The notes under the pieces are model-generated. The model did not search any database and was not told the origin of the DNA. It saw only the letters and a program-made list of their open reading frames with translations. Source: a virus. From it: a stretch of DNA of 55,171 nucleotides. Location of the stretch: IMG/VR virus record IMGVR_UViG_3300012971_000890; one strand, written 5' to 3'. Position 1 is the first letter of the stretch; every line of letters starts with the position of its first letter. Shown one piece after another: positions 5,970-46,792 of this stretch. Position numbers and translations under genes: made by a program.

Positions 5970-5999
5970 ATTTTACTGACGGGTGGGACCGATTGTAAA
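5970..5999 (-). promoter_or_regulatory. phage promoter, TTTACA(AT)-N18-TAAAAT
   Basis: Minus-strand GAGTTTACAATCGG...TAAAAT about 30 nt upstream of the 5336..5941 gene. Confidence 0.6.
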
Positions 6000-6000
6000 C

Positions 6001-15047: not shown

Positions 15048-15453
15048 TGCGTTTCTCTCCGGGCAGGGGTTTGAAGGCGTCATCGCCTGTCGCCAGGTCC
15101 ACCATTTCGCGGGCGGAAAGCGCCTTGCGCCAGGCGGCGAGCTTGTTGGCGAACTCCCGCTCGCCGGCCTCGCACAGTTTCTTCCACTCCAGACTCAGGA
15201 AGGCGTCCACCTTGCCGACGATGAAATCCTTCCACTGATGCAGCTTCATCTCGTATTCATCGTAGAGGCGAAGCTCCAGGGTTGCACATTTATTGCGCTC
15301 GGCACGCAACATCCGGTAGGCTTCTTCGTACCCTTCTTCGAGGGCACGCTCCATTTCATTCTTCACGTCCGAGAGTTTTTGCTTATATTCTTCTTCCAAC
15401 TCGGCACGCACTTCGGCCTTAATCGCGGCCCGGTCCATCCAGTAGTTTTCCAT
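14980..15453 (-). CDS. hypothetical coiled-coil protein (3-prime end overlaps the ARH gene start)
   Basis: 157-aa ORF; the last ~25 residues look like an alternate frame of the ARH N-terminus. Confidence 0.4.
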   Translation of the reverse strand: MENYWMDRAAIKAEVRAELEEEYKQKLSDVKNEMERALEEGYEEAYRMLRAERNKCATLELRLYDEYEMKLHQWKDFIVGKVDAFLSLEWKKLCEAGEREFANKLAAWRKALSAREMVDLATGDDAFKPLPGEKRNDHHPRPDQRHVPGHRHWGRPG

Positions 15454-16294: not shown

Positions 16295-17383
16295 TTAGCC
16301 GTCGTCGTCCGACAAATCAGCGAACAGCCGGTTGGGGTACTTCAGCTTGTATCCCTCCAGCAGACGAGTTTTGATGCCCTCCTCGACACTGCGCTTGTCA
16401 AACGCCGTCATGAGCGACCCAAAAATCTGCGGGTACTCATTCTTGGCGAACCAGGCATAATCCTTGCGCAGTTTATCTGGCGGCGGGTCACCCACCCCCG
16501 CCACTAGCATTATAGACGCTGCGGTTTCGCGGACACGCTTGGTTTCGTGCAAAAGGTCAAGCTGGGCTTCGGTGTAAATCTCGCGCAGCTTTTCCTTGTG
16601 GCGGTCGGGGGCCTTGGCGATTAAGTCATCCATTAGGTCATCGAAAACGACCTCGTAGAGACGATAGGCCGGGCGCATCAAAGCGTCCACCGCACGGTGG
16701 CGCTCCAAATACCAGTTGCACTTCGCCTTCACCCAGAGGCCATTCTCAAGAACCACAACGTAGCCCTCAAACTCCTCCTTGTCAAGATGGCCAAACAGAT
16801 CGGCAAACGCGAAGTCGTACTGCTGCGCGGCGTCAGGATAGCGGGGGTAATAACTGTACTCGCCCGTGGCCCGGCACCGGGAATGCAGGTACACCAGGCG
16901 GGGGCGGGGATATTCCACCACGATCTGATTGTGAGGGGCGACAAATTCAAAAATCGGCGTGCAGCCCCTTCGCACATCCGCCACAATGTCGTCCACCATC
17001 CCCAGGCTGCGGGCCAACCGCATCGCCTGCTGCGCCTGCGGCGTCTCGCAAGACATTCGCGTGGACGCCCGCAGATCGCCCTTCCATTCAAAGAAGTGGA
17101 CCATCGAGCCGTCGAGCTTTTCGTAGACCCTGCCGTTCAGATGGCAGAGCTTGTGGTACTGCGTGTCTTCCGTCTGACCCACGTTGAAGAACTTGTGGAG
17201 AGGCAGGGAAACGATTTCCCCGGTGGCCTCGGCAAAAGTGATGCCACGGAATTCGCGGCGGATGCCGTCGAACGACCCTGGGAACTGGAGCAGGTAGTTG
17301 ATGCAAACCAAGCCATCGTACCGTTTTACGAGGAATTCCTCACGGCCTTCCAGGGCAACCAGGGCTTCGGGCAGCTTGAGCAT
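16295..17383 (-). CDS. RNA ligase, T4 Rnl1-like family
   Basis: 362 aa (T4 Rnl1 is 374 aa); motif I EKLDGS, motif IV EGYVVV, motif V LWVKAK; a TTTACA promoter copy lies immediately upstream. Confidence 0.65.
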   Translation of the reverse strand: MLKLPEALVALEGREEFLVKRYDGLVCINYLLQFPGSFDGIRREFRGITFAEATGEIVSLPLHKFFNVGQTEDTQYHKLCHLNGRVYEKLDGSMVHFFEWKGDLRASTRMSCETPQAQQAMRLARSLGMVDDIVADVRRGCTPIFEFVAPHNQIVVEYPRPRLVYLHSRCRATGEYSYYPRYPDAAQQYDFAFADLFGHLDKEEFEGYVVVLENGLWVKAKCNWYLERHRAVDALMRPAYRLYEVVFDDLMDDLIAKAPDRHKEKLREIYTEAQLDLLHETKRVRETAASIMLVAGVGDPPPDKLRKDYAWFAKNEYPQIFGSLMTAFDKRSVEEGIKTRLLEGYKLKYPNRLFADLSDDDG

Positions 17384-17522: not shown

Positions 17523-18185
17523 TCACAGCCTGTTAGCCTGTTCTTCTAAAGCGGCTCTCACTCGCGTGGCGTCGGCCTTTCCTCCTAGCTCCTTCAAGAT
17601 CGGGCCGATAAGCGAGTTGAGAGCCTGCTTTTTTCCTTTCTTGTAATCCTCGATCACCTTGGGTTTTTCCGCCAGGTGCCGGGCCACCGTCGCCTCCAGC
17701 ACGTCCGCCTGCATCTCGTTGAGGATGTCCAACTGAAGGATCGCGGTCAAGGCGTCCACCCCGGTCCAGCACACCCCGAAGACTTCTTTGACCTGGGTGG
17801 CCGACAACACGCCCTTGTGGCGTAGGAACAGGAGTGCCGGAATGTCCTCGCGCAGCCAGGGAAAATAATCCACCATCTGCTCAAACGTCGTCTTGGTTTC
17901 CTCCAACTTGGCCAGCATGTCGTTGGTCAGGAAATTAAAAACCAGCTTGCACCAAATGGGCCACTCCGGTCTGGCCTGGCAGTTATAATGGGGCATTTTG
18001 CACAGCCAGAATATTGCCTTGCCGAGCTTATCGTTGCTTTTCTCCCAATGCTCCTCCTCGGCGGTTAGCCAGAAGTCCACGCCGTCACCCTGGGGGCAGC
18101 CGGCGGCTTCCCACTTGTAATATGCGGCTGTACGGACTTCATGAAGCATCTGGCAGTCTCCGTATGTGCAGCACTCGGAGGCCAA
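17523..18185 (-). CDS. protein with DUF2934-like N-terminus and GatB/YqeY-like C-terminal domain
   Basis: C-terminus IEDYKKGKKQALNSLIGPILKELGGKADATRVRAALEE resembles the GatB/YqeY domain. Confidence 0.45.
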   Translation of the reverse strand: MASECCTYGDCQMLHEVRTAAYYKWEAAGCPQGDGVDFWLTAEEEHWEKSNDKLGKAIFWLCKMPHYNCQARPEWPIWCKLVFNFLTNDMLAKLEETKTTFEQMVDYFPWLREDIPALLFLRHKGVLSATQVKEVFGVCWTGVDALTAILQLDILNEMQADVLEATVARHLAEKPKVIEDYKKGKKQALNSLIGPILKELGGKADATRVRAALEEQANRL

Positions 18186-18580: not shown

Positions 18581-20299
18581 TTACGCCGCCGCGATGTCGG
18601 GACGCAGCTTCTCGATGTTCAGGCCACAACGGCTGAGGCCCTTGCGTTCGATGAAGTCGTCAATATCGAAACTGGCGTTCATGCTGACGTGGCTCAAGTA
18701 GGTCTGATGAACCGCAGCCCGGAAATCATCGACGCGGACGAAGGTGCCCTTGCCGGTCTTGGAGGCCATGTCGCGCTTGAGGGCGCAGGACGTGGCCAGG
18801 TCCACGATGCCGGCGATCATGGCCCCGGAGATGCAGTCCCCCAGGGTCATGTAGTGTTCCCGACCGTCGCCATTCGAGAACTTGTAGAGGACACGCTCCT
18901 GGGAGAAAATCTCGGCGGTAGTATGCGCGGCGATCTCGGCCAAATCGGCGGGGCCGGTCGGGATGTTGCGCAGGTGAATGCGGAAGTATTCAATGGCCGT
19001 GCGGGTGGTCGGACGCCCGATGCGAACGTGGCGGTCAATGCGGCCCTCGCGCACCACGGCGGGGTCCAGGCTGTTGGGCTGGTTGGTGGCCAGCACCACC
19101 ATCACCTTGCTCGTCTCCAGGCCGTCCATTTCGGACAGGAACATGGGGACGATGGTTTTTTCCACGTCGGAGGACTTGCCGGTGCCACGCTGCGGCATGA
19201 TGGCGTCGGCCTCGTCAATGAAAAGCAGCGCCGGGTAGCCGTGCTTTTCGTGGTGTTCACGGCCACGGTCGAACAGTTCACGGATTTGCCGCTCGCTCTC
19301 GCCCACCCACTTGCTGAGCAGTTCCGGTCCCTTGACGTAAATGAAACCGGACTGCATCTGTGGCTTTTCGTGGATTTTGGCGATACTGAAGGCAGCCGCC
19401 TTGGCGCACAGGGTCTTGCCGCAGCCCGGAGGGCCGAAAAGGAGGACGCCCTTGGGTGGCCGCTTGTTGTAGTGGCGGTACAGTTCTGGGAACTGGTACG
19501 GCAATTCGATGGCCTCGACCAGTTGCTCCTTGGCATCGCGGACCCCGGCGATGTCGTCCCAGGTGACCTGGGAATCTTCCAGCAGGTTGAAGCGGTCGTT
19601 GCCCTCGCGCTCCAGCAGCCGGACGATCACGGTGTCGGAAGGGTCCAGAACCACACGGTCGCCGGGCTTGAAGGTCACGTTGGTCAAACCGGCCAAAACC
19701 TGGCGGGGCCGACCGTCCACGTCCACTTCGGCGTGGTCCTTGTCGATCAGGCGGGTGATGCCACAGATCGTACCCCCGCCGGTCGTCTCGGCCTTGTCGT
19801 GAATCTGGTACGATTGCAAATCGACCTTCACAACCTCGGACGGGTGAAACTTCTTGCCGGGGACGCCGTGGACCTCGTACTGTTGGCCGTTGAACACGAT
19901 GACGCAGTTGGTGCCATCATCCTTGCCGAGCAGCTTGACCTGGACGGGGGCATCTTTCAGACCGATGGAGAACTTGTGGCAAGCCCCGTTGGGCAGGGCC
20001 AGCGTCACGTTGTCTTCCTTGTCCACGCCCTTGGAGGCGATCTTGCCGTAGCGCGGGCGCTTATCGTTCTTGCGCCATTCGCGGTCGATAATGAGCATCA
20101 GGTCGCCCTGCTCGAAGGCTTCCAGGTTGAACTCATTACGAGCCTTCACCACCGTGGCGTAGACCAGGGGAGCCGCGAGGAGACGAGCCACGAAGCACTC
20201 GTATTCCAGAATGGTCCCCTTGGCTTCCTCCAACAGCGCCATCATCTGTTCTTCGTTCATTGGAATCCTCGCATCCATTCTAGTTCTCCCCATAGTCAA
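18581..20299 (-). CDS. AAA+ ATPase, ARC/Mpa (proteasome-associated ATPase)-like: N-terminal coiled coil, OB-like middle region, single AAA domain
   Basis: Walker A GPPGCGKT, Walker B LLFIDEADA, second region of homology; the 572-aa length and domain order fit ARC/Mpa. Confidence 0.75.
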   Translation of the reverse strand: MTMGRTRMDARIPMNEEQMMALLEEAKGTILEYECFVARLLAAPLVYATVVKARNEFNLEAFEQGDLMLIIDREWRKNDKRPRYGKIASKGVDKEDNVTLALPNGACHKFSIGLKDAPVQVKLLGKDDGTNCVIVFNGQQYEVHGVPGKKFHPSEVVKVDLQSYQIHDKAETTGGGTICGITRLIDKDHAEVDVDGRPRQVLAGLTNVTFKPGDRVVLDPSDTVIVRLLEREGNDRFNLLEDSQVTWDDIAGVRDAKEQLVEAIELPYQFPELYRHYNKRPPKGVLLFGPPGCGKTLCAKAAAFSIAKIHEKPQMQSGFIYVKGPELLSKWVGESERQIRELFDRGREHHEKHGYPALLFIDEADAIMPQRGTGKSSDVEKTIVPMFLSEMDGLETSKVMVVLATNQPNSLDPAVVREGRIDRHVRIGRPTTRTAIEYFRIHLRNIPTGPADLAEIAAHTTAEIFSQERVLYKFSNGDGREHYMTLGDCISGAMIAGIVDLATSCALKRDMASKTGKGTFVRVDDFRAAVHQTYLSHVSMNASFDIDDFIERKGLSRCGLNIEKLRPDIAAA

Positions 20300-21120: not shown

Positions 21121-21486
21121 TTAGTCGTCGTCATCAATGCTGCGGTGTCTTGGGACGCCTTGTGGGTATTTAGCCTTGAGCCGGCGCTCCAATATAACCC
21201 ACTCGATAGCTTCTTGCACATCGGGCCAATATATGGCGGGCTGATCCCATTCCCCCTCCGTGGTTTCGTCCAGGGACTTGAGGATGCGCGATTCAAAAAA
21301 CTCGCCGCCGTCCACATCTCGCTGGACCAAACGGCACATGGTCCAGAACAGGATGTCATTGGCTTCGTCAAGGGACCGGGCCGGGATGTCATACGGCCCG
21401 GTCCACTTGTAGTTTTTCTGCATCGTCTCCAGGTCGTAGACGACGTAGCAAAACTTCATCGGGAAGGTTTCAAGCTTGCGTCTCAT
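21121..21486 (-). CDS. hypothetical protein, translationally coupled to the PARP-like gene
   Basis: ATGA overlap at 21483-21486 with the PARP-like stop. Confidence 0.45.
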   Translation of the reverse strand: MRRKLETFPMKFCYVVYDLETMQKNYKWTGPYDIPARSLDEANDILFWTMCRLVQRDVDGGEFFESRILKSLDETTEGEWDQPAIYWPDVQEAIEWVILERRLKAKYPQGVPRHRSIDDDD

Positions 21487-23105
21487 GCCGCAAATTCCAC
21501 GAGGTAGCGAAGCTCGAACTGGTTGCGCTGGAACACGATCCACTCGTTGTTCTGGACCTGCGAGTGGCCTCCCTTTCCGAAGACGCAGTGGCAGCCAGCC
21601 GGCGGGGCGGTATAACCACGCGGACCTGGCGCGACGTGCGGACGGCCCAGCACCACGTCACCCGCGAACATGAAAGCTTCACGGCCCCGCACGGCACCGC
21701 CGCCGGACGACCAGTAGCTCCCCCGCAGGCTGGTGTAGCCGGCACTTTTCTTCCAGTCGTCGGCCCAATAAATGCCGGGGCCGAACATAGCGCCGGTGAT
21801 GACCACGCCGACCAACTGACTCGGCATACGCAGGTTCTCCCGCAGGATGCCGGTGACGTTGACCGAGCGGGTGCCGTGGAACAGCAGGCCGGTGTTGCTG
21901 TCACGGTAGCGGCGGATGTCGTCGCTATTTTGCAAATCCGCACGCTCCGGCGGCTGGAACAGGGGCCGCTCGTCAATGCGATGCTTGCCCTGGACGATGC
22001 CGGCCTGCGCCCCCACCACCAACTTGTGGTCGCCGTGGCGCTCGACCCGCCAGGCGTTCTTGATTTTCATGGCTCCCAGGTAGCCGTGCTTGTTGGCCGT
22101 AGCGCGGGGCCACCAGCCGTAAAGCCACTTGCCCACATCGCTCTTGGGGTCGATCCACTCCATCTCGATGGGCATACCACCGAACGGGTCGTGCTGATGC
22201 TTCACGTCGTCCACGTCCGCAGCGACCGCCAGAGCCGCCTCAAAGGCGTCCAGGTCCGCCTGCCAGCCCAGGATGTTGCTGGTGTTGAGAATCCAGTCCT
22301 GGGGCGGGCAGTGCAGCGGCTTCTTCTTGGGGATGCGACCGTACATGAGCGCGGTCAAGTGCTTCAGGTCGTCATCGGCCACCTGGGCGTCCACGCTGTC
22401 GCCCACCACCAGCAGGCGCTTCTGGGCTTCGGCCAGGAAGTCGCGGGCCTCCTCGATGGCCGCTTGGGTGGGGATGGAGGCATCGGCCATGCTGCCACGG
22501 GCGTACTGCACCGTCGCCACGTTCAGGTCGCGCATGAGCGAGAGCGTATTCTGGTCCGCCGCACGGGCCGGGGCCTTGATGACCTTCTTCTTGGCACCTT
22601 TTTTGTCGTCCGCCGGGGTGTCGTCGGGCTTGTCCTTCGGTTTCGCCCCGTCGTTGGCCTTGATGGTGCGGGCGTCCGGCAGGCCAGTGCTGCGGGTCGC
22701 CATCGCCCGGACGAGGTAGCAGTCCTTGCCGGCGCGGGCACGCAGCACCCGCTTGCTGGCCACCTGGACCCACTCGCCCCGCTTGTCGTTCTTGTCGTGG
22801 AGTTGCGAAGCGAATTCACGCTGGGCGTCCGCCTCGCCGGAGCAGACCACGAACTGGAAGTTGGGGTTTTTCGCCCCGGTGCGGCCCCACTCGAAGTAAA
22901 CGGCCCACTGGCCGCTCGTCTTATGCTTGACGACCGCCGCGTGGTAGTATTTGTTTGAGTCCTTGCCGTCCTGGGTGAAACACCCCATGTCGGCAATCTT
23001 GCAACTGTCGAAGTCCCCATCCGCGATGGCGGGTGGTCCGAAGCACTGCCAATCGTTGGGGCTGGACCCGTTCGGGTAACTGTTCTTCTCGATCTTCGAT
23101 CCCAT
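21483..23105 (-). CDS. poly(ADP-ribose) polymerase-like ADP-ribosyltransferase with N-terminal WGR domain
   Basis: WGR motif (WAVYFEWGRTG); catalytic H-Y-E triad context LLFHGTRS, GPGIYWADD, QNNEWIVFQ; RBS GGAGAG; TTTACA promoter copy upstream. Confidence 0.75.
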   Translation of the reverse strand: MGSKIEKNSYPNGSSPNDWQCFGPPAIADGDFDSCKIADMGCFTQDGKDSNKYYHAAVVKHKTSGQWAVYFEWGRTGAKNPNFQFVVCSGEADAQREFASQLHDKNDKRGEWVQVASKRVLRARAGKDCYLVRAMATRSTGLPDARTIKANDGAKPKDKPDDTPADDKKGAKKKVIKAPARAADQNTLSLMRDLNVATVQYARGSMADASIPTQAAIEEARDFLAEAQKRLLVVGDSVDAQVADDDLKHLTALMYGRIPKKKPLHCPPQDWILNTSNILGWQADLDAFEAALAVAADVDDVKHQHDPFGGMPIEMEWIDPKSDVGKWLYGWWPRATANKHGYLGAMKIKNAWRVERHGDHKLVVGAQAGIVQGKHRIDERPLFQPPERADLQNSDDIRRYRDSNTGLLFHGTRSVNVTGILRENLRMPSQLVGVVITGAMFGPGIYWADDWKKSAGYTSLRGSYWSSGGGAVRGREAFMFAGDVVLGRPHVAPGPRGYTAPPAGCHCVFGKGGHSQVQNNEWIVFQRNQFELRYLVEFAA

Positions 23106-24730: not shown

Positions 24731-25243
24731 TTAGTTGGGAGGCGTCCAGCCCGGAGGAAGGAAGCGCCGGAGATAAAAGACCGTGACAGGCAGATCGTTC
24801 TCCAACCAGTGGCGGGCGATCAGTTCCTCGATTTTGTTCCAATCACCCCCGGCGATGCCTGAACCGAAAAGCGGGCAGCGAATTTCCACGTCGCGGCCCG
24901 CCTGGATATATTGTTTCGCCGTGGTGGCGACGGCCTTGAGGCACGCCTCCAGCGAGTCGTAAATCAAGGGCGGGTTATGCCCGAAGTGCTGCGCCACCAT
25001 GTTGGCAACCACCACGTTGCCGTCGTCGCTGGGGACGAACTGCGTTTGCCCCAAGGCCAGGTCATGATTGGCGAGGTAAAGGGTTTTGGCGACGGGAAAC
25101 TGCTCGGCCAGGGGCAGGACGAAACCGGCACCCCACACCTTCTCGTCATTAACGACGTGCGGGATGATGACCAGTTTCGGGTCGTGGGGGTCGAGCGAGG
25201 CGAACAGGTCGCCCTCGACGTAGGCGGGATGGGTCTTGGCCAC
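24731..25243 (-). CDS. macro-domain protein (ADP-ribose binding or hydrolysing)
   Basis: VVNDEKVWGAGFV ... CPLFGSGIAGGDWNKIEELI matches the macro-domain Gly-rich loops. Confidence 0.7.
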   Translation of the reverse strand: MAKTHPAYVEGDLFASLDPHDPKLVIIPHVVNDEKVWGAGFVLPLAEQFPVAKTLYLANHDLALGQTQFVPSDDGNVVVANMVAQHFGHNPPLIYDSLEACLKAVATTAKQYIQAGRDVEIRCPLFGSGIAGGDWNKIEELIARHWLENDLPVTVFYLRRFLPPGWTPPN

Positions 25244-25551: not shown

Positions 25552-25737
25552 TTATTCCTTCGCCGGCTCTTCTGCCTCGTGGGAGCAGTAGCCACAGCGA
25601 GCGCCGGTGAGAATGCCGCCGCAAGTGCAGCAGTAGCGAGTCAGGAAGTTCTGAATGAACTCCAGGCGGTCTTCCGGGCGGAAGTGCTTCTGCCGCTCCA
25701 GAAACGCCTCATATTCCTCCTTGGCGGACTGCAACAT
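25552..25737 (-). CDS. small zinc-ribbon protein
   Basis: CCTCGG ... CGYCSH. Confidence 0.4.
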   Translation of the reverse strand: MLQSAKEEYEAFLERQKHFRPEDRLEFIQNFLTRYCCTCGGILTGARCGYCSHEAEEPAKE

Positions 25738-26380
25738 CGACGCCTCCGATCAGGGTGTTTGGGGTGAGGGGCTGCTTCATCCAGTGCTGGGAGGTTTGGA
25801 CGTGTCGGGGCCGGACGTACTTGGCGACGTGCAGGCCGAAATCCTGGTAGGGAAAAGCATCACGGGTGCGAACGACGTAGCCTTCGCAAGTGTGTCCGAA
25901 CGCCGAGGCGCGGGGCCACAAGTCGCGGATGCGGTCCTCGTCCCAGATTCCCTCATATAAAACCGGCACCGTGGGCACGTCCAGCAGACAGGCCCACTCC
26001 TGGGTGTCGTCCCAGGAAAGACAGGTGTTTCCGTCGTCATAAATACCGATCAGGTAGAAATAAGCGGTCAGGCGGTCGTAGAAGATGCTGTGCTTGGCGT
26101 ACAGGTTTTCACCACATAATCGCCAGCCCTGCGGGATGTTATGGCGAATTGAAGCGTGGACTTGCTTGACCAAAGTGCGGGAAGGATGGCTGCCTGAACT
26201 GCGGGAACGGGCGTGGTAGTGGATCGGATACATGGACGTATTTTCACCGTCCAGCTTCTCGGTCATGATGACTTGCTTGCCGAGAAAATGGTTCACATCC
26301 CCCAGCACCCTGTCGTCCTGGTCGGACTTTCGGCTCCAGGGAAAGTGGGGCGTTCGCGGGTACTTGTAAAGCCCGTTCAT
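25709..26380 (-). CDS. ATP-dependent RNA ligase (PF09414/Rnl2-like minimal ligase)
   Basis: YKYPRTPHFPWS N-terminus; motif I TEKLDGEN; motif IV CEGYVVR; motif V HVAKYVRP. Confidence 0.6.
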   Translation of the reverse strand: MNGLYKYPRTPHFPWSRKSDQDDRVLGDVNHFLGKQVIMTEKLDGENTSMYPIHYHARSRSSGSHPSRTLVKQVHASIRHNIPQGWRLCGENLYAKHSIFYDRLTAYFYLIGIYDDGNTCLSWDDTQEWACLLDVPTVPVLYEGIWDEDRIRDLWPRASAFGHTCEGYVVRTRDAFPYQDFGLHVAKYVRPRHVQTSQHWMKQPLTPNTLIGGVDVAVRQGGI

Positions 26381-26421: not shown

Positions 26422-27396
26422 TTAAGCCCAGCGCCCGTCATTTTTGTCGCGCTCGCGGACGATGGGGCGGTCCTGGTTCCAGTGTTCCGGCAAAAACTGC
26501 GGGTCCATCGTCTCCAAGAAATGCCCCCGCCACATCTTCACAAAGCTCTCCAGGTCCAGGTACGTTTCGCTGATCTTGGCGACGATGGTTTCCCCGTGCC
26601 GGGCGAAGTCCTCGGTCTGGATCATCGACTCCATCGCATCGGCCCGCTCCATGTCTTCCTCGGTAATATCATGCTTCTTGTAAAAATCTCGAAGGGTATC
26701 CAACAACTCCTCGCGGCGGGCCGGGGGAATGCCTTTCCAATGTTTGCGGAGGGCGTGGGCGTGCTTTTTTAATTTGATGATGGTTTTGTCGTGATGCCAG
26801 CCCGTGCCCATGAGCGGAATGCCGTACTCAAAGGCCAACTTTTCCTTGAGCCGATTAGCCTCCTCCTCGTACTTGTCATGGCAGGCCACGCACAGGAGGA
26901 GGATGTCATGGTAGCTGTGGTCCTTGACAATGGCAGGAAAATATTTCCGATAACACCAGGGGACGACGTGGTGACGGGTCAATTGCACTTTGCTGCCGCA
27001 GACCACGCACTCGTTGCGCTTGCTGGTGAGATAATAGTCGTCCCCCATGTGACCGGGGCCGTTCGGCTGGAATTTTAACTGGATCGTGGGCGGATCGTCC
27101 TTGACCTTCTCGGCCAGGCCCCGGCTCAAGTACCAGTTGATCTTGTCCTGGTTACAATGGAACATGACCTCGCCCTCTGGGTTGAGGACGTGACAGTTCC
27201 CATACAGTCGTGTCTTTAGCGGTCGCGTCATATTCTGTGCCGTCAGCCCCACTATTCTCGCTCTTATTATAGGGGGAGTTTTGCTCACCCACTCAGCCTG
27301 GCGGAAGTCCTCCACCATTCTGGCGGCGTGGTGCAGCGAGGCACAGAAAAGCACTTTGTTGCTGTCCTTGGCCAAAACTAGCACCGGCGTATTCAC
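26422..27396 (-). CDS. HNH-motif nuclease
   Basis: CVVCGSKVQLTRHHVVPWCY ... LLLCVACHDKY (a C..C/HH/C..C core). Confidence 0.55.
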   Translation of the reverse strand: MNTPVLVLAKDSNKVLFCASLHHAARMVEDFRQAEWVSKTPPIIRARIVGLTAQNMTRPLKTRLYGNCHVLNPEGEVMFHCNQDKINWYLSRGLAEKVKDDPPTIQLKFQPNGPGHMGDDYYLTSKRNECVVCGSKVQLTRHHVVPWCYRKYFPAIVKDHSYHDILLLCVACHDKYEEEANRLKEKLAFEYGIPLMGTGWHHDKTIIKLKKHAHALRKHWKGIPPARREELLDTLRDFYKKHDITEEDMERADAMESMIQTEDFARHGETIVAKISETYLDLESFVKMWRGHFLETMDPQFLPEHWNQDRPIVRERDKNDGRWA

Positions 27397-28394
27397 TAGA
27401 CACTCCGCTTCCGAGCCGCGTTGAGCCAGGACAAGTAGAACGCCTCCATGTGTATGTCAATAAAGGCGTCCTCCGGGCCACCCTCCACCTTCCGGTACGG
27501 CAGGAAGACTTCCTCCCACATTGCCTCACTCTCGTCGCAATAGAGCGCCAGGAAACGTTTGTCCTGGCACTGTTCCATATCGCGCAGGTTGCAAGAACGG
27601 TCGAAGAACTTGATGACCTTGGCTTCCCAAGACACGGTTTTCAAATGGTCGCGGTCCATCTTTTTCCGCTCGGCCCGTGGAAGCTTCCAACCCTTGCTGG
27701 GATTGGTCAACTCCAGCACCAAACGGTACACGTCCTCACCCGCCGTGGAAATAATGGCGGTATAGGGGGTGTTGGGGCAGTCCTCGATAACGTCATGCAG
27801 CCACGCCGCCTTGGCCATTCGGAGCCACTGGCCCATCGGAAGGTCACGTCGCCACCAGTTGATGCGGTCGAACACCTGCGAGGGGTGGGTGATATAGGCC
27901 GCGTCAACGTATTTGCGCTTTTGACCTTCGTGGGCACAGTGCGCCAACAGGATGGTATTCTGGAGGCCCTGATCCATAAACATGCCGTGAACGAACATAC
28001 GGCAGTTCACGCAGGTGCCGTCACCGCTCAGGTTCCAACAGGTGTTGCGCCAGTCATGCGGGCAGTTCAATATCTGTTGGAGACGATTGTGGGCCATTTC
28101 CTCAGCCGCAATCCAGCCGCCGGCTTTTTCACCGCTCGCGCCGCCGGTCACCCCGAACTGGCTACGATGAATGGCGTGGTCGTGCCAGTAATCCAGGGCG
28201 GGCAGATGCAACGGCACCGGGAGGACGACGGCGAAGCTACAACTTGGTTCTTCGGGATTCTCGCTGAGAATATAATCCAAACCGAGCTTGCGATTATACG
28301 AGCAGCGAATATCAGCGTCCTCCGGCCAATCCAATTGGCACTGGTACTTACCACCGGGGGGAGGGCCGTTGACGATGGGCACGAGGGGTTTCAC
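27396..28394 (-). CDS. HD-domain (p)ppGpp hydrolase, SpoT/Mesh1-like small alarmone hydrolase, with Cys-rich N-terminal extension
   Basis: HCAHEGQKRKYVDAAYITHP ... AAWLHDVIEDCPNT ... KFFDRSCNLRDM parallel the SpoT HD-domain motifs. Confidence 0.65.
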   Translation of the reverse strand: MKPLVPIVNGPPPGGKYQCQLDWPEDADIRCSYNRKLGLDYILSENPEEPSCSFAVVLPVPLHLPALDYWHDHAIHRSQFGVTGGASGEKAGGWIAAEEMAHNRLQQILNCPHDWRNTCWNLSGDGTCVNCRMFVHGMFMDQGLQNTILLAHCAHEGQKRKYVDAAYITHPSQVFDRINWWRRDLPMGQWLRMAKAAWLHDVIEDCPNTPYTAIISTAGEDVYRLVLELTNPSKGWKLPRAERKKMDRDHLKTVSWEAKVIKFFDRSCNLRDMEQCQDKRFLALYCDESEAMWEEVFLPYRKVEGGPEDAFIDIHMEAFYLSWLNAARKRSV

Positions 28395-28813
28395 TTGTCC
28401 TCCTTCCAGGTCTTGAGAATGCGCTTGACGGCCTGAACACAGTTGCCAGGCATCAGCACAGTCAACACCGGGACATCAGAAGGCATCCGTAGGGTTGAGT
28501 GGATGTCCACCGCGTAATCGGCGGTAGAGGCAAACGGCGGGCAGGCCAGCACGATATGCGGGGTGTTGGCGGCGACCATACCGGACAGAGCGTTGGACCT
28601 CCCTGCCACCGTCACGAAAATGACCCGGCTCTCGTTTTCAAAACGGTTGAGCAGGTCGAGAAGCTGCCGGGGGTTCTTGTGGGCCGAGCAGACGTGCTTC
28701 TCGACCTCCAGCCAATCGTAGCCGCGACTTCCCACCAGGGCGCTTAGCGGTCCCCACAGTTGTTCGACGTGATCGTTGTCCTTCTCGGAGCCGGCAATGA
28801 TAATGACTTTCAT
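28391..28813 (-). CDS. purE: PurE-like (N5-CAIR mutase / AIR carboxylase family)
   Basis: MKVIIIAGSEKD ... CSAHKNP ... VAGRSNALSGMVAANTPHIVLACPP. Confidence 0.65.
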   Translation of the reverse strand: MKVIIIAGSEKDNDHVEQLWGPLSALVGSRGYDWLEVEKHVCSAHKNPRQLLDLLNRFENESRVIFVTVAGRSNALSGMVAANTPHIVLACPPFASTADYAVDIHSTLRMPSDVPVLTVLMPGNCVQAVKRILKTWKEDK

Positions 28814-29049
28814 TTTATCAGGTCCAAAATAAATTCGGGTGTGTATAGAGTAATATCGAAGCCCTTCCCGCTCATTTCCATCAAGACCAGTCGCATGGTC
28901 TGTGCCCGCTTCGGACTGTCGCTCATGATTTTGCGGACGAGGGCCTTGGCCTCGTCGTCCACTTCCTGCTCCGAGAAGAACGGGCCGTGCTTGGAGCAGG
29001 AGAAGACCTCCACCACCAGCAACCAGTATTCGGTGAGTTTTTTGGGCAT
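28810..29049 (-). CDS. hypothetical small protein
   Basis: 79 aa. Confidence 0.4.
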   Translation of the reverse strand: MPKKLTEYWLLVVEVFSCSKHGPFFSEQEVDDEAKALVRKIMSDSPKRAQTMRLVLMEMSGKGFDITLYTPEFILDLIK

Positions 29050-29540
29050 CAGAATTTCAAAAGCTCCTGGGGAATCTCGTCGTAATTCACCACCAGGCGA
29101 TTTTCTTTGGTGAGCCGCCGGATGTCTTCAAGTTTATACTTCTGGCGCTCGCCCATCGTGCGCAGGTCCAATCCTGCGTCAAGAAACTTGCCGAGCGCGT
29201 AATCCTCAACCGCCTGTTTCCACCGCCAGTAGTACCGGATTGCCTCGTGGACGCTGGCATAGCGGCAACGTTCGTAGAAGTCGTCGCGTCGTTCGCTGGG
29301 CATGGATTCGTGTTCCCATTCCCCCAGCTTGTTGAGGCAGCCAAATGTGCCTTTGATGGCCCAGCGATCCGGGGCTTCTCGGTCGGGATTGCCCACGTTC
29401 TTGACGAAAACGCCATGCAAGCGCACGTCGTCAGAGAAGAACTCCCACCAGAATGGGGTGCCGCACAGCAGAGGCTCCGGCCCCAGATAAAATTCCGAGG
29501 CGAGGCTCAGCAAGTCATTGTCACTGATCCGCTCGCTCAT
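29049..29540 (-). CDS. hypothetical protein
   Basis: 163 aa. Confidence 0.45.
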   Translation of the reverse strand: MSERISDNDLLSLASEFYLGPEPLLCGTPFWWEFFSDDVRLHGVFVKNVGNPDREAPDRWAIKGTFGCLNKLGEWEHESMPSERRDDFYERCRYASVHEAIRYYWRWKQAVEDYALGKFLDAGLDLRTMGERQKYKLEDIRRLTKENRLVVNYDEIPQELLKF

Positions 29541-29575: not shown

Positions 29576-30547
29576 CTAATCGAGTTTGACATCTCCGGCC
29601 TTCAACCTTTCCCGAATGCGGTCCAGCCCCCGCTCACGCAGTTGCCGAACACGTTCCTTGGTCAGTCCCAAATCCGCACTGATTTCCTTGAGGGTGCGTT
29701 TGCTGCCGTCGCAATCATGCAGCCCAAACCATTCCTCGATGACGAAGCGCTTGCGCTCGTCCTCCTCGCGGTCCAGCAGGCTTAGAAGGCGGGAGACATT
29801 TCTCTGCGTAAGCTCCTTGGCTTCCTCGTGGTCACGGCAATCCTCGTCGCTGGTGTCGAGGCGGGTGTCATATATTCCGTCATCGAAGCCGGTGACGAAC
29901 CGCTCGTTGAAGTTGCGTTCACCGGCGAGATCGCGGGTGAAGTTGTTGAGCAAGACCCAGGTGCCGTAGGTGGAGAATTTGAAACCACGGGTCCAGTCAA
30001 AACAATCCACCGCCTTGACGATATTCAGGTAGGCGTCGGAGAGCAGGTCGTTCACCAGGCTGTGCGCCCGATAAAAGTCCGTGCGTTTGCGAAGCACCTG
30101 AGCGGCCAACCGGGTGTTGGAACACACAAGTTGGTGCTTTACCGTCTCGGCCAGTTTCAAATAGTCCTCCACCTTCTGGAGCTTCTTTTTCATTCGATCA
30201 TATTGATCCCTGGTGGTCGGCTCCTTCTGCCGCAGGGTGCGGGCCAGCCTTTTTGCCCGATACTTGAAATAGTTGAACTTGCGAAACAGGTGATATTCTT
30301 GCTCCTTGTCCAGCAGGGGTTCCTGGTACAATGGAATCAACTCGGTCGGTATATTTTGGCCCTTGAGCTTCGTGACCTCGTTGCGCTTCTCGTTGAATTC
30401 CGCCAGCCGGGGCATGTCGCCAACGATAACGACTTCCTTAGTGCGGTCATCAAAGTCGGGATGGTTGAAAATCTTGAATTTCTTGTTGGTGACGAACGCC
30501 TTGAGTCGTTTGGCCTTCTGCGTAACGTCGTCCTTAACTGCCAGCAT
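29576..30547 (-). CDS. sigma-70 family RNA polymerase sigma factor
   Basis: Region 2 FSTYGTWVLLNNFTRDLA; region 4 HTH KRTLKEISADLGLTKERVRQLRERGLDRIRERL; sits behind the promoter copy with a perfect TATAAT. Confidence 0.75.
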   Translation of the reverse strand: MLAVKDDVTQKAKRLKAFVTNKKFKIFNHPDFDDRTKEVVIVGDMPRLAEFNEKRNEVTKLKGQNIPTELIPLYQEPLLDKEQEYHLFRKFNYFKYRAKRLARTLRQKEPTTRDQYDRMKKKLQKVEDYLKLAETVKHQLVCSNTRLAAQVLRKRTDFYRAHSLVNDLLSDAYLNIVKAVDCFDWTRGFKFSTYGTWVLLNNFTRDLAGERNFNERFVTGFDDGIYDTRLDTSDEDCRDHEEAKELTQRNVSRLLSLLDREEDERKRFVIEEWFGLHDCDGSKRTLKEISADLGLTKERVRQLRERGLDRIRERLKAGDVKLD

Positions 30548-30582: not shown

Positions 30583-30611
30583 ATTATAGACCAAACCTGG
30601 CCAGTTGTAAA
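30583..30611 (-). promoter_or_regulatory. phage promoter, CTTTACAAC-N17-TATAAT
   Basis: About 36 nt upstream of the sigma-factor gene. Confidence 0.7.
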
Positions 30612-30638: not shown

Positions 30639-31043
30639 TTACGGAAGCGGCACGAGAAATGCGTTAAGTGCCTTGACGATCTTCCGCACCCGATACCCGT
30701 TGGGGTGGTCCACAACAACCGTAATTTCCTTGTCAGCCACCGCCCAGGGTTTGCCGGCGGCGTTTTGTTCGATGATGACGTAGATGCAGGTGTTGTGGGT
30801 GTAGCGGCGGCTGTAACCGTGCGTGTCCCAAAGCTCCTTGTCTTGCGGCGTTTGGAAAATAAAAAACTCGTTGCGATCAAGTGCTTGGCGAAGTCGCCGG
30901 CTGGGAGCGCCGTGGGGCGGGTCGTCGTACTCAACGACCAGCCCTGGCCACTCCCGCCGGCAAATACCGAGGACGCCTTTCTCAACCTGGGCGTAGGTCT
31001 TCCCCTCCGGCCACTCATAAAGCAGATCGTAACCGCCGATCAT
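30639..31043 (-). CDS. hypothetical protein (start MIGGYDLLYE...)
   Basis: ATGA overlap with the histidine-kinase stop at 31040. Confidence 0.4.
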   Translation of the reverse strand: MIGGYDLLYEWPEGKTYAQVEKGVLGICRREWPGLVVEYDDPPHGAPSRRLRQALDRNEFFIFQTPQDKELWDTHGYSRRYTHNTCIYVIIEQNAAGKPWAVADKEITVVVDHPNGYRVRKIVKALNAFLVPLP

Positions 31044-33283
31044 CCGATCTCCACCTTGGAGTGTTTCCTGAACAAGTCCTCCAGCACGCCGGGGATCACC
31101 GGCTTGACGAGATATTCGTGGAAGCCCGCCTCGCTCGCTAACATGCGGTGTTTCTCGGAAGCCAAGCCGGTGACCGCGATAATCACCGCTTGCGGCACCA
31201 GACGGCGCAGTTCTCTGCACACCTTGAAGCCGTCCATGTAGGGCAAGCCGATGTCGAGCAGCACCACGTCGGGATCGAACTCATTGGCACTTTTGATAGC
31301 CGCCGGCCCGTCATTGGCCACCCACACGTCGTAGCCCTGCATACGCAGCATGGCCACGAAGCTGTCCGCCGCGTCCACGTTGTCATCCACCACCAGGATG
31401 CGGCAGTCCTTGCTGGGGGCGGTGGGCACGGTAGCCGGCTCTTCGCGGGTGCGACGTGGAGTGATGGGTTCCGGCATGGCCACCCGCTCCTCGCGCCCGT
31501 TGATGACAGGCAGTTTGACGGTGAAGGTGCTGCCAAGGTTCAAACCAGGACTGTGGGCATTGACGCTGCCGGCGTGCATCTCCACGATCTGCTTGACCAG
31601 GCTCAGGCCCACGCCCAACCCGCCCATGCTTCCGGTGACATGGTTCTGGCCGCGCCGTTCCGCCTGAGCGAACAGGTCGAAAACCTTCCCCAGCATTTGC
31701 TCCGAGATGCCGATGCCCGTGTCGGTGATGCTGACGATGGCCTCGCGCTCGTCGCTCTCCATGTCAATGCGAATCTTGCCGCACGCCTCGGTATATTTCG
31801 CGGCATTATTGAGGAGGTTGGTGAAAACCTGCTCCAGACGGGCCAGGTCGCCTTCCACCCACACCGCCATGACCGGGACGTTGATGGTCAGGGCATGATA
31901 ACGCATATCCAGGTTGGGGCGAGACTGCTCGATGGCACGGGCAATCGCCTGCTGGAGTTGGACCGGCTTGCGCTGCAATTGGAGCTTACCCCGGCTGATG
32001 CGAGCAACGTCCAGCAGGTCGTCCAGCAAACGCGAAATGTGCTGGACCTGGCGCTCGATGAGTTGGCGGTGGTCGCGCACCACCGGATCGCAGTCGCCGT
32101 CACGCATCCGCGTCACTTGCAAGCTGGACAGGATGGGTGCCAAGGGGTTGCGCAGTTCGTGGGACAGGATAGCCAGGAACTCGTCCTTGCGGCGGTCGGC
32201 CTCGGAAAGCTCCTCTACCAGTTGGCGGTGTTCGGTCAGGTCGAGGCACAAGGACACCCAGCCGTCCTTGACGGGCGTATAGAGGCCATTCACCCACCGC
32301 TTGCCGATGCCGGGGATGTCCAGTTCGTCCTCGTAGTTGACATGCTCACCGGCAAGGACTTTTTGAAACTTGGGCAGCAACTTGTCGAAGATTTCCTGGC
32401 CGAAGACTTCGATGATGGACTTGCCGATAATGTCCTCGACGGGCCGTTTCAGCCAGCACCCGTAGGGTTTGCTGCACCACAGGACTTTGAAATCACGGCT
32501 GAAGTGGATCACACACGCCGCCATGCCGTCCACGACGGTGTGCAATTGCGCCGTGACCTCGGCCAACTGGTCGGCCTCGTGCTTACGCTCCGTGAAATCC
32601 TGAAGCACCGCGACCCAACCCTCCTTGGTGGGGGTGTACCGGCCCACCACCCAGCGCGGGCCGATGTTGGCGATGTTAATTTCCTGCTCGTATTCGACCT
32701 GCTCCCCGTGGATCGCCTTTTCCCAGAGGGGCCGCAGGATATTGAACGCCTCATCTCCGATAATATCACGGATCGGGCGACCGATAACCTCCTCCGGGGA
32801 CTTCCGCAGCCAATCGCAATACGGCTTGCTGGCCCAGAGGTATTTGTAGTCCCGGTCCAGGTGGCAGACGGCTGCGGCCATGCCGTCCACTACGCTGTGC
32901 AATTGGGTCGTCACACGCGCCAGACGTTCTTCGTGTTTTTTTCGCTCGGTGATGTCGCGGACGACCGCCACAAATCCCATCTCGCAGGGCGAAATCGTCA
33001 TCTCGATGGGAAACTCCTCGCCGTTGAGGCGCTTCGCCCGTGTCTCCACGAGAGAGCCTATCATCGGCCCCCGCCCCGTGGCCTTGTAAGTGTCCAGACC
33101 GGCGCGGACCTGCGGCACCATTCGTTCCGGCACGAACAATTCGTGAACGGATTTTCCCACCAGATTATCCGCCGGGCAGCCGAACATTCGTTCCGCCGCC
33201 GGGTTGAACGTGGTGATGGTCAGGTCTTTATCGGTGAGGATGATTGCGTCCTGCGCGGCTTCCAGAACGGCGTTCAGCATCAT
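31040..33283 (-). CDS. hybrid sensor histidine kinase/response regulator with about four PAS domains
   Basis: H-box HELRNPLAPI; N/G boxes (NLLNNAAKYT, DTGIGI, GGLGVGLS); C-terminal receiver domain (ILVVDDN ... LLDIGLP ... LVKP). Confidence 0.85.
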   Translation of the reverse strand: MMLNAVLEAAQDAIILTDKDLTITTFNPAAERMFGCPADNLVGKSVHELFVPERMVPQVRAGLDTYKATGRGPMIGSLVETRAKRLNGEEFPIEMTISPCEMGFVAVVRDITERKKHEERLARVTTQLHSVVDGMAAAVCHLDRDYKYLWASKPYCDWLRKSPEEVIGRPIRDIIGDEAFNILRPLWEKAIHGEQVEYEQEINIANIGPRWVVGRYTPTKEGWVAVLQDFTERKHEADQLAEVTAQLHTVVDGMAACVIHFSRDFKVLWCSKPYGCWLKRPVEDIIGKSIIEVFGQEIFDKLLPKFQKVLAGEHVNYEDELDIPGIGKRWVNGLYTPVKDGWVSLCLDLTEHRQLVEELSEADRRKDEFLAILSHELRNPLAPILSSLQVTRMRDGDCDPVVRDHRQLIERQVQHISRLLDDLLDVARISRGKLQLQRKPVQLQQAIARAIEQSRPNLDMRYHALTINVPVMAVWVEGDLARLEQVFTNLLNNAAKYTEACGKIRIDMESDEREAIVSITDTGIGISEQMLGKVFDLFAQAERRGQNHVTGSMGGLGVGLSLVKQIVEMHAGSVNAHSPGLNLGSTFTVKLPVINGREERVAMPEPITPRRTREEPATVPTAPSKDCRILVVDDNVDAADSFVAMLRMQGYDVWVANDGPAAIKSANEFDPDVVLLDIGLPYMDGFKVCRELRRLVPQAVIIAVTGLASEKHRMLASEAGFHEYLVKPVIPGVLEDLFRKHSKVEIG

Positions 33284-35330: not shown

Positions 35331-35941
35331 ATTACTGCCGTGGAGCCGTCAAACGTAACAGCAAACAGGTTGAGAATCAGATTTTCCAACCCCACCGCCC
35401 GGCGCTCCACGATGCCGGACTCGACGGAGTACCTATACAGCCCCCAGAAAAGCTCCCACAGCCCGGACGGGCCACAAACCCAGGAAGCACTCATTGGGTC
35501 GCCGTACTTCTTGATGACCTTCTCCTCGACCAAGGCGCTTACCTTGACGCGGTTCTCGATGCTGACCACCGGGAACACCAGGAAGAAGGGTTGCAACGTG
35601 TGGGATTTGCAAACGAGCTTCCGTTCACCAAGCTTGAAAAGGTTCCTGGTATCGCTCGTAAGCGCGAAATCCGGCGGGCACAGGAGCCAAACCCCCGGAG
35701 GGATGCCGTTTCCTATAACACTGTCGTAGCGGTCGATAGCACGGGAGTTGTAGGTGCTGCGTCCAGGGACGCAACTCAGCCCCAACTCCGCAATTGTTTC
35801 CTTGCCCTCTGGAGGGATTCCAAAGTCAAGGGCCACTCCTGGCAGGGCGAGGTTCTTCAACGATCTGGCCCACTTGACCCCGCTCGTTCCCCACGTTTTC
35901 TTGTCGAAATCGGTAATAACGACGTGGTTTATTTCATCCAT
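35327..35941 (-). CDS. hypothetical protein (start MDEINHVV...), possible nucleotide-sugar transferase-like
   Basis: Internal ATG overlapping the upstream stop; the track's N-terminal extension is an alternate frame. Confidence 0.4.
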   Translation of the reverse strand: MDEINHVVITDFDKKTWGTSGVKWARSLKNLALPGVALDFGIPPEGKETIAELGLSCVPGRSTYNSRAIDRYDSVIGNGIPPGVWLLCPPDFALTSDTRNLFKLGERKLVCKSHTLQPFFLVFPVVSIENRVKVSALVEEKVIKKYGDPMSASWVCGPSGLWELFWGLYRYSVESGIVERRAVGLENLILNLFAVTFDGSTAVI

Positions 35942-36596
35942 CATTCTCCTTCTGTTGGCCGTTGAGTTCAAACACCGTTGGGGCGTGGACGAGGCGATAT
36001 TTCCCGTCCACCACCGTGACGTTGGCCACGATGGTGCCGTCCATTTCCCACTGACCGCGCCCTTCATGGATGTGGCCAAAAACCATCAGCTTGGGTTTTA
36101 TTTCCTTGAGCCTGGCGAGCAGGCCGGGCGATCCCACCTTCTCACTGTCCCGCCCCCGTGGGGCCTCGTCGCCATAGCCGCGAGGCGGGCTGTGGGCGAC
36201 GAGGATATTGATGTCGTTGGGTATCAGCGCCCACTTCTTGACCAGATCGGGTTCGTAGAGATTGAACGCCCAATCAAAGAAATAAAGCTGCCAGGGCGTG
36301 CCCCAAATTTTGAAGCCTTCAAATTCCGTGCCACTGTCCTGAAGGTAAGTCCAGGGAAGGTCCGGCACCCGATGCGGCGCATTTTGAAATATCAGATCGT
36401 GGTTGCCCGCGACCCCAATTATCTTGCGGGCGGGAACCAACTTCAGCCAATAACGGAAATCCGTGTTGAGCCAATGCTCCTGGTACTCCACCCGATGGTT
36501 GATGGTGGGACAAATATCCCCCGCGATCAACAGGAGATCGCAAGGCGGGATGTCGGGCAAATACCCATGCAAATCACTGACGGCGACGACCTTCAC
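35934..36596 (-). CDS. calcineurin-like metallophosphoesterase
   Basis: DLHG, GDIC, GNHD and GHIHEG motifs in order. Confidence 0.8.
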   Translation of the reverse strand: MKVVAVSDLHGYLPDIPPCDLLLIAGDICPTINHRVEYQEHWLNTDFRYWLKLVPARKIIGVAGNHDLIFQNAPHRVPDLPWTYLQDSGTEFEGFKIWGTPWQLYFFDWAFNLYEPDLVKKWALIPNDINILVAHSPPRGYGDEAPRGRDSEKVGSPGLLARLKEIKPKLMVFGHIHEGRGQWEMDGTIVANVTVVDGKYRLVHAPTVFELNGQQKENDG

Positions 36597-38147: not shown

Positions 38148-39440
38148 TTAGGCGGCTTTTACGGGGTACAACTTGGCCTCACCCCGGACCACTTCCGGCG
38201 TGACGACGTACTTGCCTCCCTGGTGTTCCGGCAGTTCGTACATGATGTCGAGCATGATCTCCTCGACCACGCCCCGCAACGCACGGGCACCCGTGTCGCG
38301 CTCGATGGCCCGCTTGGCGACTTCCTTGATGGCATCCGGCGTAAATTCCAGGGTCGCGCCGTCCATCTTGAAAATCTTCATGTACTGCTTGAGTAGGGCG
38401 TCCTTCGGCTCGGTCAGAATCTTGCAGAGGAATTCCTCGTTCAACTCGCTGAGGGTGGTTACGACCGGCAGCCGGCCCACGAACTCCGGGATCATCCCGA
38501 ACTCAATCAGATCGTCGCTGGTCACCTTGCCCATGATGGCGTCGTTCTGCTCTTGCTCAGTGCCCTCGTCACGCGATACGCCGAAGCCGATGCTGCGTCG
38601 GCCCGTCCGGCGAGCGATGATCTCCTTCAGGCCGGTGAAGGTTCCCCCGCAGATGAACAGGATGTTCGTCGTGTCCACCTGGATGTATTGCTGCTCCGGG
38701 TGCTTGCGCCCGCCCTGGGGCGGGACGTTGGCGAGCGTGCCCTCAAGCATCTTCAGGAGAGCCTGTTGCACGCCTTCGCCGGAAACGTCGCGGGTGATGG
38801 AAATATTCTGCGTGGTCTTCCCGATCTTGTCGATCTCGTCAATGTAAATGATGCCGCACTGCGCGGCCTCGATGTTAAAGTCCGCCGAGCGGAGAAGACG
38901 CAGGATCAGGTTTTCCACGTCCTCTCCGACGTAACCGGCCTCGGTTAGCGTGGTGGCGTCCCCAATGGCAAAGGGGACATCCAGTTTCTTGGCCAGGGTG
39001 CGGGCCAGAAGGGTCTTGCCCGACCCGGTGGGACCGACCAGCAGAATGTTGCTCTTGTCGATCACCACGTCCGCCAACGGGTCTTCCTCCTCCTTGTTCT
39101 GGTTGGTGGTGTCCTTCAGACGCTTGTAATGGTTGGCGACGGCGACGGCCAGAATCTTCTTCGCCCGTTCCTGGCCCACAACGTACTGGTCCATGTGGGC
39201 GACCAGTTCCTTGGGCGAAGGGATGTGCTGGGGCAGGTGCTTGTCGATGAGTTCGCGTTTCAGGTTTTGCTTCTTGATGATCTCCTGGCAAATCTCCACG
39301 CAGGTGGGGCAAATGAAGACCTTATCCTCGTCCGGCTTTCTGCCGTTGGCGAGGGCACCTGGCCCCTCAATCAACGGTCCCACAACCTTGTGAGACTGCT
39401 TGCAGAAGTCACAGTGCTGCTCACGCTTTTTCCTCGTCAT
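38148..39440 (-). CDS. clpX: ATP-dependent Clp protease ATP-binding subunit ClpX
   Basis: N-terminal C4 zinc-binding domain; [47 protein letters not shown] is near-identical to the ClpX consensus. Confidence 0.9.
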
Positions 39441-39479
39441 GCTGTCCTCGTTGGGTGTAAAGGATCGCGTTTCCAACCT

Positions 39480-40589: not shown

Positions 40590-40635
40590 CCTTGGGGTGG
40601 GGGCTACATAAATATTATAGGGAAAAGGAGCCAAT

Positions 40636-46783: not shown

Positions 46784-46792
46784 GCGTCCCTC

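Follow-up and report, generated by a model that had tools for sequence, protein, structure and literature searches.

The 55,171-nt viral stretch IMGVR_UViG_3300012971_000890 from IMG/VR (hereafter the window) carries at 27396..28394 a gene for a 332-aa protein, terminated by TAG, in which a predicted alarmone hydrolase domain of the small alarmone hydrolase (SAH) kind is preceded by a predicted zinc-knuckle domain. Coordinates are those of the window unless another contig is named, and the gene, like the other window features described below, lies on the minus strand. Its GTG start follows a Shine-Dalgarno sequence, GGAGGA (28398..28403), after a spacer of 3 nt and shares the GTGA at 28391..28394 with the stop of an upstream purE-like gene; at its other end, the TAG stop and the GTG start of the next gene, coding for an HNH-like protein, have one base in common. 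Close homologues begin at the same MKPLVP... position. The homologues, 105 in total, include an identical protein from JGI metagenomes (P0001), and the closest full-length relatives share 81%, 67% and 51% identity; therefore, the open reading frame (ORF) is a real, conserved gene under selection. A sequence-only reading of the stretch had proposed the same ORF, flanked by an HNH nuclease on one side and PurE on the other, as a SpoT/Mesh1-type HD hydrolase with a Cys-rich N-terminal extension. The gene and both neighbours (HNH-like, 26422..27396; PurE/AIRC, 28391..28813) were found where it had placed them, and the sequence, the conserved catalytic residues and the predicted fold all agree with that proposal.

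The C-terminal domain (residues 141-332, 27399..27974) is all-helical in the model and contains, in this order, HEGQKRK (155-161), YITHP (167-171), LHDVIED (199-205) and DRSCNLR (265-271). The sequence-only reading had listed all four motifs in the right order, but had spaced the first one incorrectly, as H..EGQ.RK. The protein retains the complete set of catalytic residues of human MESH1. With MESH1 numbers counted on what we take to be the MESH1 sequence, the phosphate-binding pair R160-K161 (27912..27917) aligns with R24-K25 and the first metal-ligand histidine, H170 (27885..27887), with H35; the metal ligands H200-D201 and the catalytic pair E204-D205 (together 27780..27797) correspond to H61-D62 and E65-D66, and the last metal ligand D265 and N269, both in DRSCNLRD (27588..27602), to D122 and N126. 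In the phmmer alignment to MESH1, D205 pairs with a residue that was changed to Lys in the 5vxa chain. In an alignment of 103 homologues H155, R160 and H170 are invariant, whereas conservation reaches 90% or more at Q158, K161, Y167, H200, D201, E204, D205, D265 and N269, with K161 nearly invariant. Thus none of the HD metal ligands, on which the sequence-only reading had let its assignment depend, is missing.

Profile and structure comparisons point to the same family. The protein matches PHROG_990, 'metal-dependent phosphohydrolase' (E=1.2e-18), and among PDB sequences searched with phmmer human MESH1 comes first (E=5.9e-8), followed by other SAHs and the N-terminal regions of Rel proteins. 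The search with Pfam HD_4 (PF13328), suggested along with the original assignment, did give a match over residues 153-279, of 23.7 bits against a gathering cut-off of 27.2; a precomputed PF13328 match is on record for the majority of homologues, the 81%-identical P0002 among them. We take the shortfall, a narrow one, to reflect the divergence of the clade and not an exclusion from the RelA/SpoT homologue (RSH) hydrolase family. The NCBIfam model for long RSH proteins, TIGR00691 (spoT_relA), reached 30.2 bits, far short of its cut-off of 499.2, and aligned over profile positions 4-122 only, which is the hydrolase region; there is no synthetase domain, and a long RSH of the Rel, RelA or SpoT type was rejected on these grounds. 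The AlphaFold2 model of the full-length protein, built from the 103-homologue alignment, has a predicted local distance difference test score (pLDDT) of 94.3 and a predicted template modelling score (pTM) of 0.90, and its C-terminal domain adopts the all-helical fold of SAH and Rel hydrolases. With high confidence we assign this domain, from sequence and model, as a catalytically intact RSH-type hydrolase of the SAH kind. SAHs are generally single-domain proteins in RSH surveys (PMC3153485). The present protein is hydrolase-only, without synthetase, yet its additional self-folding N-terminal domain of 140 aa sets it outside the strict definition of the class.

The HD domain falls into a distinct clade recognisable by the signature 'ELTNPSKG ... 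RKxMDRDH'. In cellular genomes, mostly metagenome-assembled genomes of Planctomycetota, only bare SAHs of this clade were found. Other N-terminal fusions within the clade (P0063, P0076, P0090) involve a LuxR-type helix-turn-helix domain (PF00196), Clp_N (PF02861) and an uncharacterised region of 250 aa.

The N-terminal domain (residues 1-140, 27975..28394) is predicted to be an alpha/beta sandwich followed by a zinc knuckle. Its core is modelled as a strand, a short helix, three to four further strands, a long helix and a small beta knuckle bearing four ligands, with strands at residues 4-8, 16-18, 28-34, 51-59, 68-77 and 79-87 and helices at 38-43 and 93-110. Modelled alone, the domain reaches a pLDDT of 90 and a pTM of 0.81. 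The knuckle, C111-P-H113 ... C128-V-N-C131 (28002..28064; CPHDWRNTCWNLSGDGTCVNC), is present in 22 of 22 close homologues. The C-x-H ... C-x-x-C arrangement has the form of a typical structural zinc site, and metal binding is predicted from it. Within the first ~140 residues the invariant positions of these homologues are E98, C111, H113, G124, C128 and C131. E98 (28101..28103) belongs to a conserved Ala-Glu motif early in the long helix and its role is probably structural. As had been noticed from the sequence, the 140 residues are rich in Cys (7), His (7) and Trp (5); conservation is confined to the four knuckle ligands, and the remaining Cys, His and Trp residues are not conserved.

No match for this domain was obtained in Pfam, NCBIfam, PHROGs or PADLOC, either with the full-length protein or with the domain alone as query, and its profile, run against PDB sequences, gave nothing beyond a RING-like match without significance (E=0.63). 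A Foldseek search of the viral models in BFVD returned nothing at E<=0.001, no paralogue was found in the 55-kb window, and a word-index homologue search with the domain alignment recovered only P0018, a frame-shifted homologue. The double-stranded RNA-binding domain (dsRBD) has an alpha-beta-beta-beta-alpha fold with a basic KKxAK RNA-contact motif at the start of helix 2. At the corresponding helix start the N-terminal domain reads x-x-E-A-E, and nearly every homologue has an acidic version of it, with a pI of about 5-7 and a net charge between -11 and +2; a canonical dsRBD was therefore rejected, and the resemblance to RNA-binding folds is a lead and not a classification. This acidity, as calculated from the sequences, argues against a standard RNA-binding role. 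The sequence-only reading had suggested a sensor or targeting module; no evidence of a ligand came to light. Taken together, the alignments, the models and the searches indicate that the N-terminal portion is an autonomous, previously undescribed alpha/beta domain.

The domain is not restricted to hydrolases. When 1.84 billion cluster representatives were searched with its profile, 156 matched at E<=0.001, and the listed matches were sorted into four groups with the N-domain and HD profiles and by reading the sequences. In the first the domain is joined to an active HD domain, the two-domain architecture being found in ~22 clusters. The second comprises proteins with an HD-like partner in which catalytic residues are replaced (P0107, P0110, P0111, P0114 and P0115): HD has become CD, CH, HH or SG, and ED has become NF, NR, GN, GT or KN, with E98 and the CHCC set left intact. 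Judged by these substitutions, the five are probable pseudo-hydrolases. Proteins of the third group, of 140-330 aa, have no HD domain and often possess a second zinc ribbon, and in the fourth the helix-plus-knuckle part is doubled; these proteins are 375-453 aa long, with a few shorter exceptions. The domain was also found alongside other uncharacterised regions without a detectable HD domain. Across 175 instances the signature G-x13-E-x12-CxH...G-x3-CxxC occurs in about 170; C111 is kept in 171 of 172, H113 in 169 of 172, C128 and C131 each in 168 of 168, and E98 in 162 of 168.

The HD-less relatives match nothing in Pfam or PHROGs, and the three genomic contexts examined for them revealed no common partner gene. 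One of them lies on a 98-kb contig with a terminase gene; it is the sole HD-less member on a classified contig and is phage-borne. The domain therefore appears to have a function independent of hydrolysis.

Comparison of related loci revealed that the N-terminal part of the enzyme is exchanged at a conserved genomic position next to a sigma factor gene (loci are numbered L, homologous proteins P). L008 and L009 have a bare SAH next to sigma; in the window and in L002, L003 and L007 the SAH carries the zinc-knuckle domain as a fusion, and in L010 (P0048) it is joined to another domain. The latter domain is homologous to orf163, a 163-aa ORF of the window (29049..29540) that has no Pfam or PHROG match; orf163 and P0048 are 35% identical over 103 aa (BLASTP, E=5e-14), and the same N-terminal fusion occurs in P0050, P0057 and P0059. 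Thus the SAH is linked to the orf163 domain in both ways, as a fusion partner in L010 and as a separate neighbour in the window. In distant homologues the zinc-knuckle domain is 22-30% identical to the query, compared with 37-44% over the full length, and to judge from these identities it diverges faster than the HD part. Conserved residues of the HD domain differ between fused and bare SAHs only at the junction, at D141 and L144, and no further signature of an interdomain interface was found on the HD surface in this comparison. Faster divergence of the N-terminal domain and differences confined to the junction fit an exchangeable accessory module.

In the window the hydrolase gene belongs to an apparent operon that begins with a sigma factor gene. 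The gene order in this region is sigma-70-family factor, orf163, a 79-aa ORF, purE, SAH, HNH-like protein and PF09414 RNA ligase (25709..26380). The first gene (29576..30547) is supported by Pfam Sigma70_r2 and r4 matches and by its syntenic position upstream of the SAH, and is itself preceded by a sigma-70-type promoter-like site, TTTACA-17-TATAAT (30583..30611), which matches the consensus at 11 of 12 positions and was identified by this match only. No intergenic terminator-like site was found between the promoter-like site and the SAH; three short stem-loop matches fall inside the orf163 coding sequence (29414..29510). The purE-like gene, translationally coupled to the SAH, matches AIRC with 88 bits and stays below the TIGR01162 cut-off, and the HNH-like protein (324 aa, CxxC...HH...CxxC) scores 21.2 bits against the Pfam HNH cut-off of 21.4. 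Homologues of the latter with 41-45% identity follow the SAH, directly or past one small ORF, in L002, L003, L007 and L009. Beyond the RNA ligase lie a 170-aa ORF matching PHROG_335 'phosphatase', which we read as macro-like (24731..25243), a PARP catalytic domain with WGR (21483..23105; identity among relatives is 57-63%) and an AAA ATPase (18581..20299) for which PADLOC gave IetA/TRIP13-like matches. L002, L003, L007 and L009 share with the window the block sigma - SAH - HNH-like - RNA ligase - PARP; L008 keeps it minus the HNH-like match, and L010 retains sigma - SAH - PARP.

We regard the window as a fragment of the genome of a huge phage. The syntenic blocks of L002, L003 and L007-L010 are located on contigs of 79-533 kb, several of them viral contigs of IMG/VR. 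Relatives of the protein occur on IMG/VR contigs that measure 188-533 kb and on one of 670 kb from JGI. The last of these (3300047160; 669,797 bp) encodes an 81%-identical SAH in the same gene order, including the purE-SAH pair. P0256 and L007 are the relatives recorded on the contigs of 533 kb (IMG/VR) and 669,797 bp (JGI 3300047160). These lengths imply that the genome from which the window derives is among the largest known for phages. Moreover, a full-length comparison of the window PARP with that of the 595-kb 'uncultured phage' LR756511.1 gave 61.6% identity. The latter genome also has a bare SAH homologue (L031, 3968..4507), which is split by an in-frame stop near position 4250 under genetic code 11; tblastn aligns straight through this stop, and stop-codon recoding or a pseudogene is possible. 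By eye, a polynucleotide kinase-phosphatase-like gene was recognised in LR756511.1 at 5221..6189, about 0.7 kb downstream of the SAH.

All candidate genes of the window, which were chosen on the GC content of third codon positions and on ORF length, are carried by the minus strand; the overall GC content is 59%. An ADP-ribosylglycohydrolase (14019..15083), the PARP and the macro-like ORF may constitute a writer and eraser set for ADP-ribosylation. Further genes code for a T4 Rnl1-like RNA ligase (16295..17383), a GatB/YqeY-domain protein (17523..18185), a ClpX-like ATPase with a C4 zinc finger (38148..39476), an M50 peptidase (39513..40682), PRPP (phosphoribosyl pyrophosphate)-synthetase-like (44914..45903) and FolD-like (45900..46889) proteins and a NYN nuclease (51837..52547). 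A Metallophos phosphoesterase was called in the identical contig L001 at 1799..2461, which corresponds to about 35934..36596 of the window. A 747-aa hybrid histidine kinase with several PAS domains, HisKA, HATPase_c and a receiver domain is encoded at 31040..33283 and is kept in the 670-kb relative.

The explanation that we favour, and consider probable though well short of certain, is that the 332-aa protein is a two-domain enzyme of a huge phage, in which an active alarmone-type hydrolase carries an accessory zinc-knuckle module and counters alarmone-mediated shutdown of the host. We infer how it would work, including the metal, the substrate, the timing of expression, the anti-defence role and any function of the N-terminal domain. 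The enzyme would be expressed from the apparent operon at whose head stands the sigma factor gene of the phage itself. H170, H200-D201 and D265 would hold a divalent metal, which in characterised relatives is Mn2+, and the metal would act together with the E204-D205 pair, so that the C-terminal domain would cleave the 3'-pyrophosphate off (p)ppGpp and/or (p)ppApp and possibly also the pyrophosphorylated CCA end of tRNA, as shown for other SAHs. In this manner the infected cell could be kept from alarmone shutdown, be it by the stringent response or by abortive infection of the toxSAS/CapRel type. The N-terminal domain, an exchangeable module closed by its structural CHCC knuckle, would stand outside catalysis and bind a partner, most likely a protein, and thereby target or regulate the hydrolase. 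Blunting of the stringent response and detoxification of toxSAS/CapRel-type defences had already been suggested for this gene from the sequence; by analogy with stand-alone phage SAHs, for which this role has been published, the suggestion is reasonable, but the idea is not new.

Several observations weigh against parts of this explanation. The HD_4 score lies 3.5 bits below the gathering threshold. Sequence cannot discriminate between ppGpp, ppApp, tRNA-3'PP and NADPH as the substrate. The high pTM of the full-length model suggests a fixed packing of the two domains, and the N-terminal domain could accordingly shape the active site instead of acting outside it. No structural phage gene (capsid, terminase) was present among the window ORFs scanned, so the phage assignment rests on the relatives.

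A more speculative extension, which we regard as unlikely, would unite the whole N-domain family. Its members would form a new, widespread group of phage zinc-knuckle domains with a function of their own, which might be to bind a host factor, for instance a toxSAS, RNA polymerase, the ribosome or a long RSH. The fusion would bring hydrolysis of alarmones or tRNA pyrophosphate to the source of the signal, members with a dead HD domain or none would act through binding only, and the swapping of N-terminal modules (none, zinc-knuckle or orf163-like) would record an arms race over the host defence that is targeted.

The main rival to the phage alarmone hydrolase is an enzyme acting on RNA ends, in which a dsRBD/HPF-like N-terminal domain would serve as the adaptor to tRNA or the ribosome, and the HD domain, guided there by it, would strip the 3'-pyrophosphate (or a 3'-phosphate) from the CCA end as part of an RNA-repair set. 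SAHs able to de-pyrophosphorylate tRNA are known (bioRxiv 10.1101/2021.04.30.441581), the N-terminal domain has matches at the level of fold, and the neighbourhood suits such a role: the HNH-like protein and the PF09414 RNA ligase are found downstream in all syntenic relatives, the window additionally contains the Rnl1-like ligase, the Metallophos phosphoesterase and the PHROG_335 macro-like protein, and the kinase-phosphatase-like gene follows the SAH of LR756511.1. The N-terminal domain itself speaks against it, with its net charge of -11 to +2 in nearly all homologues and x-x-E-A-E in the place of KKxAK. Furthermore, sister phages carry bare SAHs at the same locus, so RNA targeting by this domain is not needed for the function of the locus, and no tRNA genes are present in the window. 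On balance we find an RNA-end enzyme unlikely. A metabolic role, in which the protein lifts the inhibition of purine synthesis by (p)ppGpp/(p)ppApp or serves as a MESH1-like NADPH phosphatase and so feeds the nucleotide supply of the phage, is suggested by the GTGA coupling to the purE-like gene, by the conservation of the purE-SAH pair in the 670-kb relative and by the PRPP-synthetase-like and FolD-like proteins. MESH1 is also the closest solved relative by sequence, the structure match 5vxa is the MESH1 complex with NADPH, and PurF is inhibited by (pp)pApp (bioRxiv 10.1101/2021.04.30.441581, introduction). However, purE is missing between sigma and SAH in L002, L003 and L007, so that the coupling is lineage-specific, and the N-terminal domain is left unexplained. 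We consider a metabolic function quite improbable as the principal one; its chemistry is shared with that of an anti-shutdown hydrolase, and hence the two are not exclusive.

Extremely improbable, finally, is that the protein serves as the type IV antitoxin of a phage-borne toxSAS module or as a non-catalytic alarmone binder, that is, a pseudo-enzyme or sponge. SAH antitoxins such as ATfaRel do exist (PMC7229694), and the HD catalytic residues have been lost in the five pseudo-hydrolase candidates of the N-domain family. Nevertheless, no PF04607 (RelA_SpoT) synthetase match was found in the genes called up to 10 kb away on each side or in the syntenic loci, nor did PADLOC give a match for the protein, and the toxSAS antitoxin was rejected for want of a synthetase gene nearby. 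All catalytic residues are kept in the 332-aa protein, and the pseudo-enzyme or sponge was rejected for it on account of this intact active site.

Alarmone signalling and tRNA pyrophosphorylation of the toxSAS/CapRel type are established anti-phage strategies, to which phage SAHs are a known enzymatic antidote. Huge phages appear to carry more than the bare enzyme, combining it with exchangeable N-terminal modules. The N-terminal domain described here is an uncharacterised, predicted zinc-binding module present in about 150 other protein clusters, some of whose members have an inactivated HD domain. If it does target or gate the hydrolase, it would offer a route to the host component at which the phage aims and would add a new domain family to the known parts of counter-defence; if it is merely a structural add-on, the protein would be an ordinary phage SAH.

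Among known systems the nearest are the phage SAHs, namely PaSpo of Salmonella phage SSU5, PbcSpo of PVP-SE1 and the 'HD-alarmone PDease' listed among the counter-signalling enzymes of jumbo phages and predicted to degrade alarmones (PMC7824862). They share with the present protein the catalytic family, a phage carrier, often a jumbo phage, and likely the role; those of SSU5 and PVP-SE1 neutralise all toxSAS toxins tested (PMC7229694). Against HD proteins from Erwinia and Pseudomonas phages and from uncultured huge phages, the 332-aa protein shows 30-39% identity. Unlike the known phage SAHs, which are single-domain proteins of about 180-200 aa, it adds the 140-aa zinc-knuckle domain, and no match among GenBank phages extended upstream of residue 130. 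MESH1 (HDDC3) of human and Drosophila, RelH (7qoc), the Leptospira SAH (7qoe), TdActApo2 (7p1y) and the P. aeruginosa PAO1 hydrolase (6z3n) share only 18-25% identity with the protein and all lack such an N-terminal extension; MESH1 and ATfaRel restore tRNA that was pyrophosphorylated by FaRel2 (bioRxiv 10.1101/2021.04.30.441581). The ribosome hibernation factors HPF/YfiA/RaiA, of beta-alpha-beta-beta-beta-alpha fold, and dsRBDs have no sequence relationship to the N-terminal domain in the profile search of PDB sequences and are basic where it is acidic, and its extra N-terminal strands and C-terminal zinc knuckle are absent from both. Thus, whereas the SAH enzyme class and its occurrence in phages are already known, the fusion to this domain is the new part: the two-domain architecture, the zinc-knuckle domain family with its predicted dead-HD members, and the swapping of modules at a conserved locus of huge phages.

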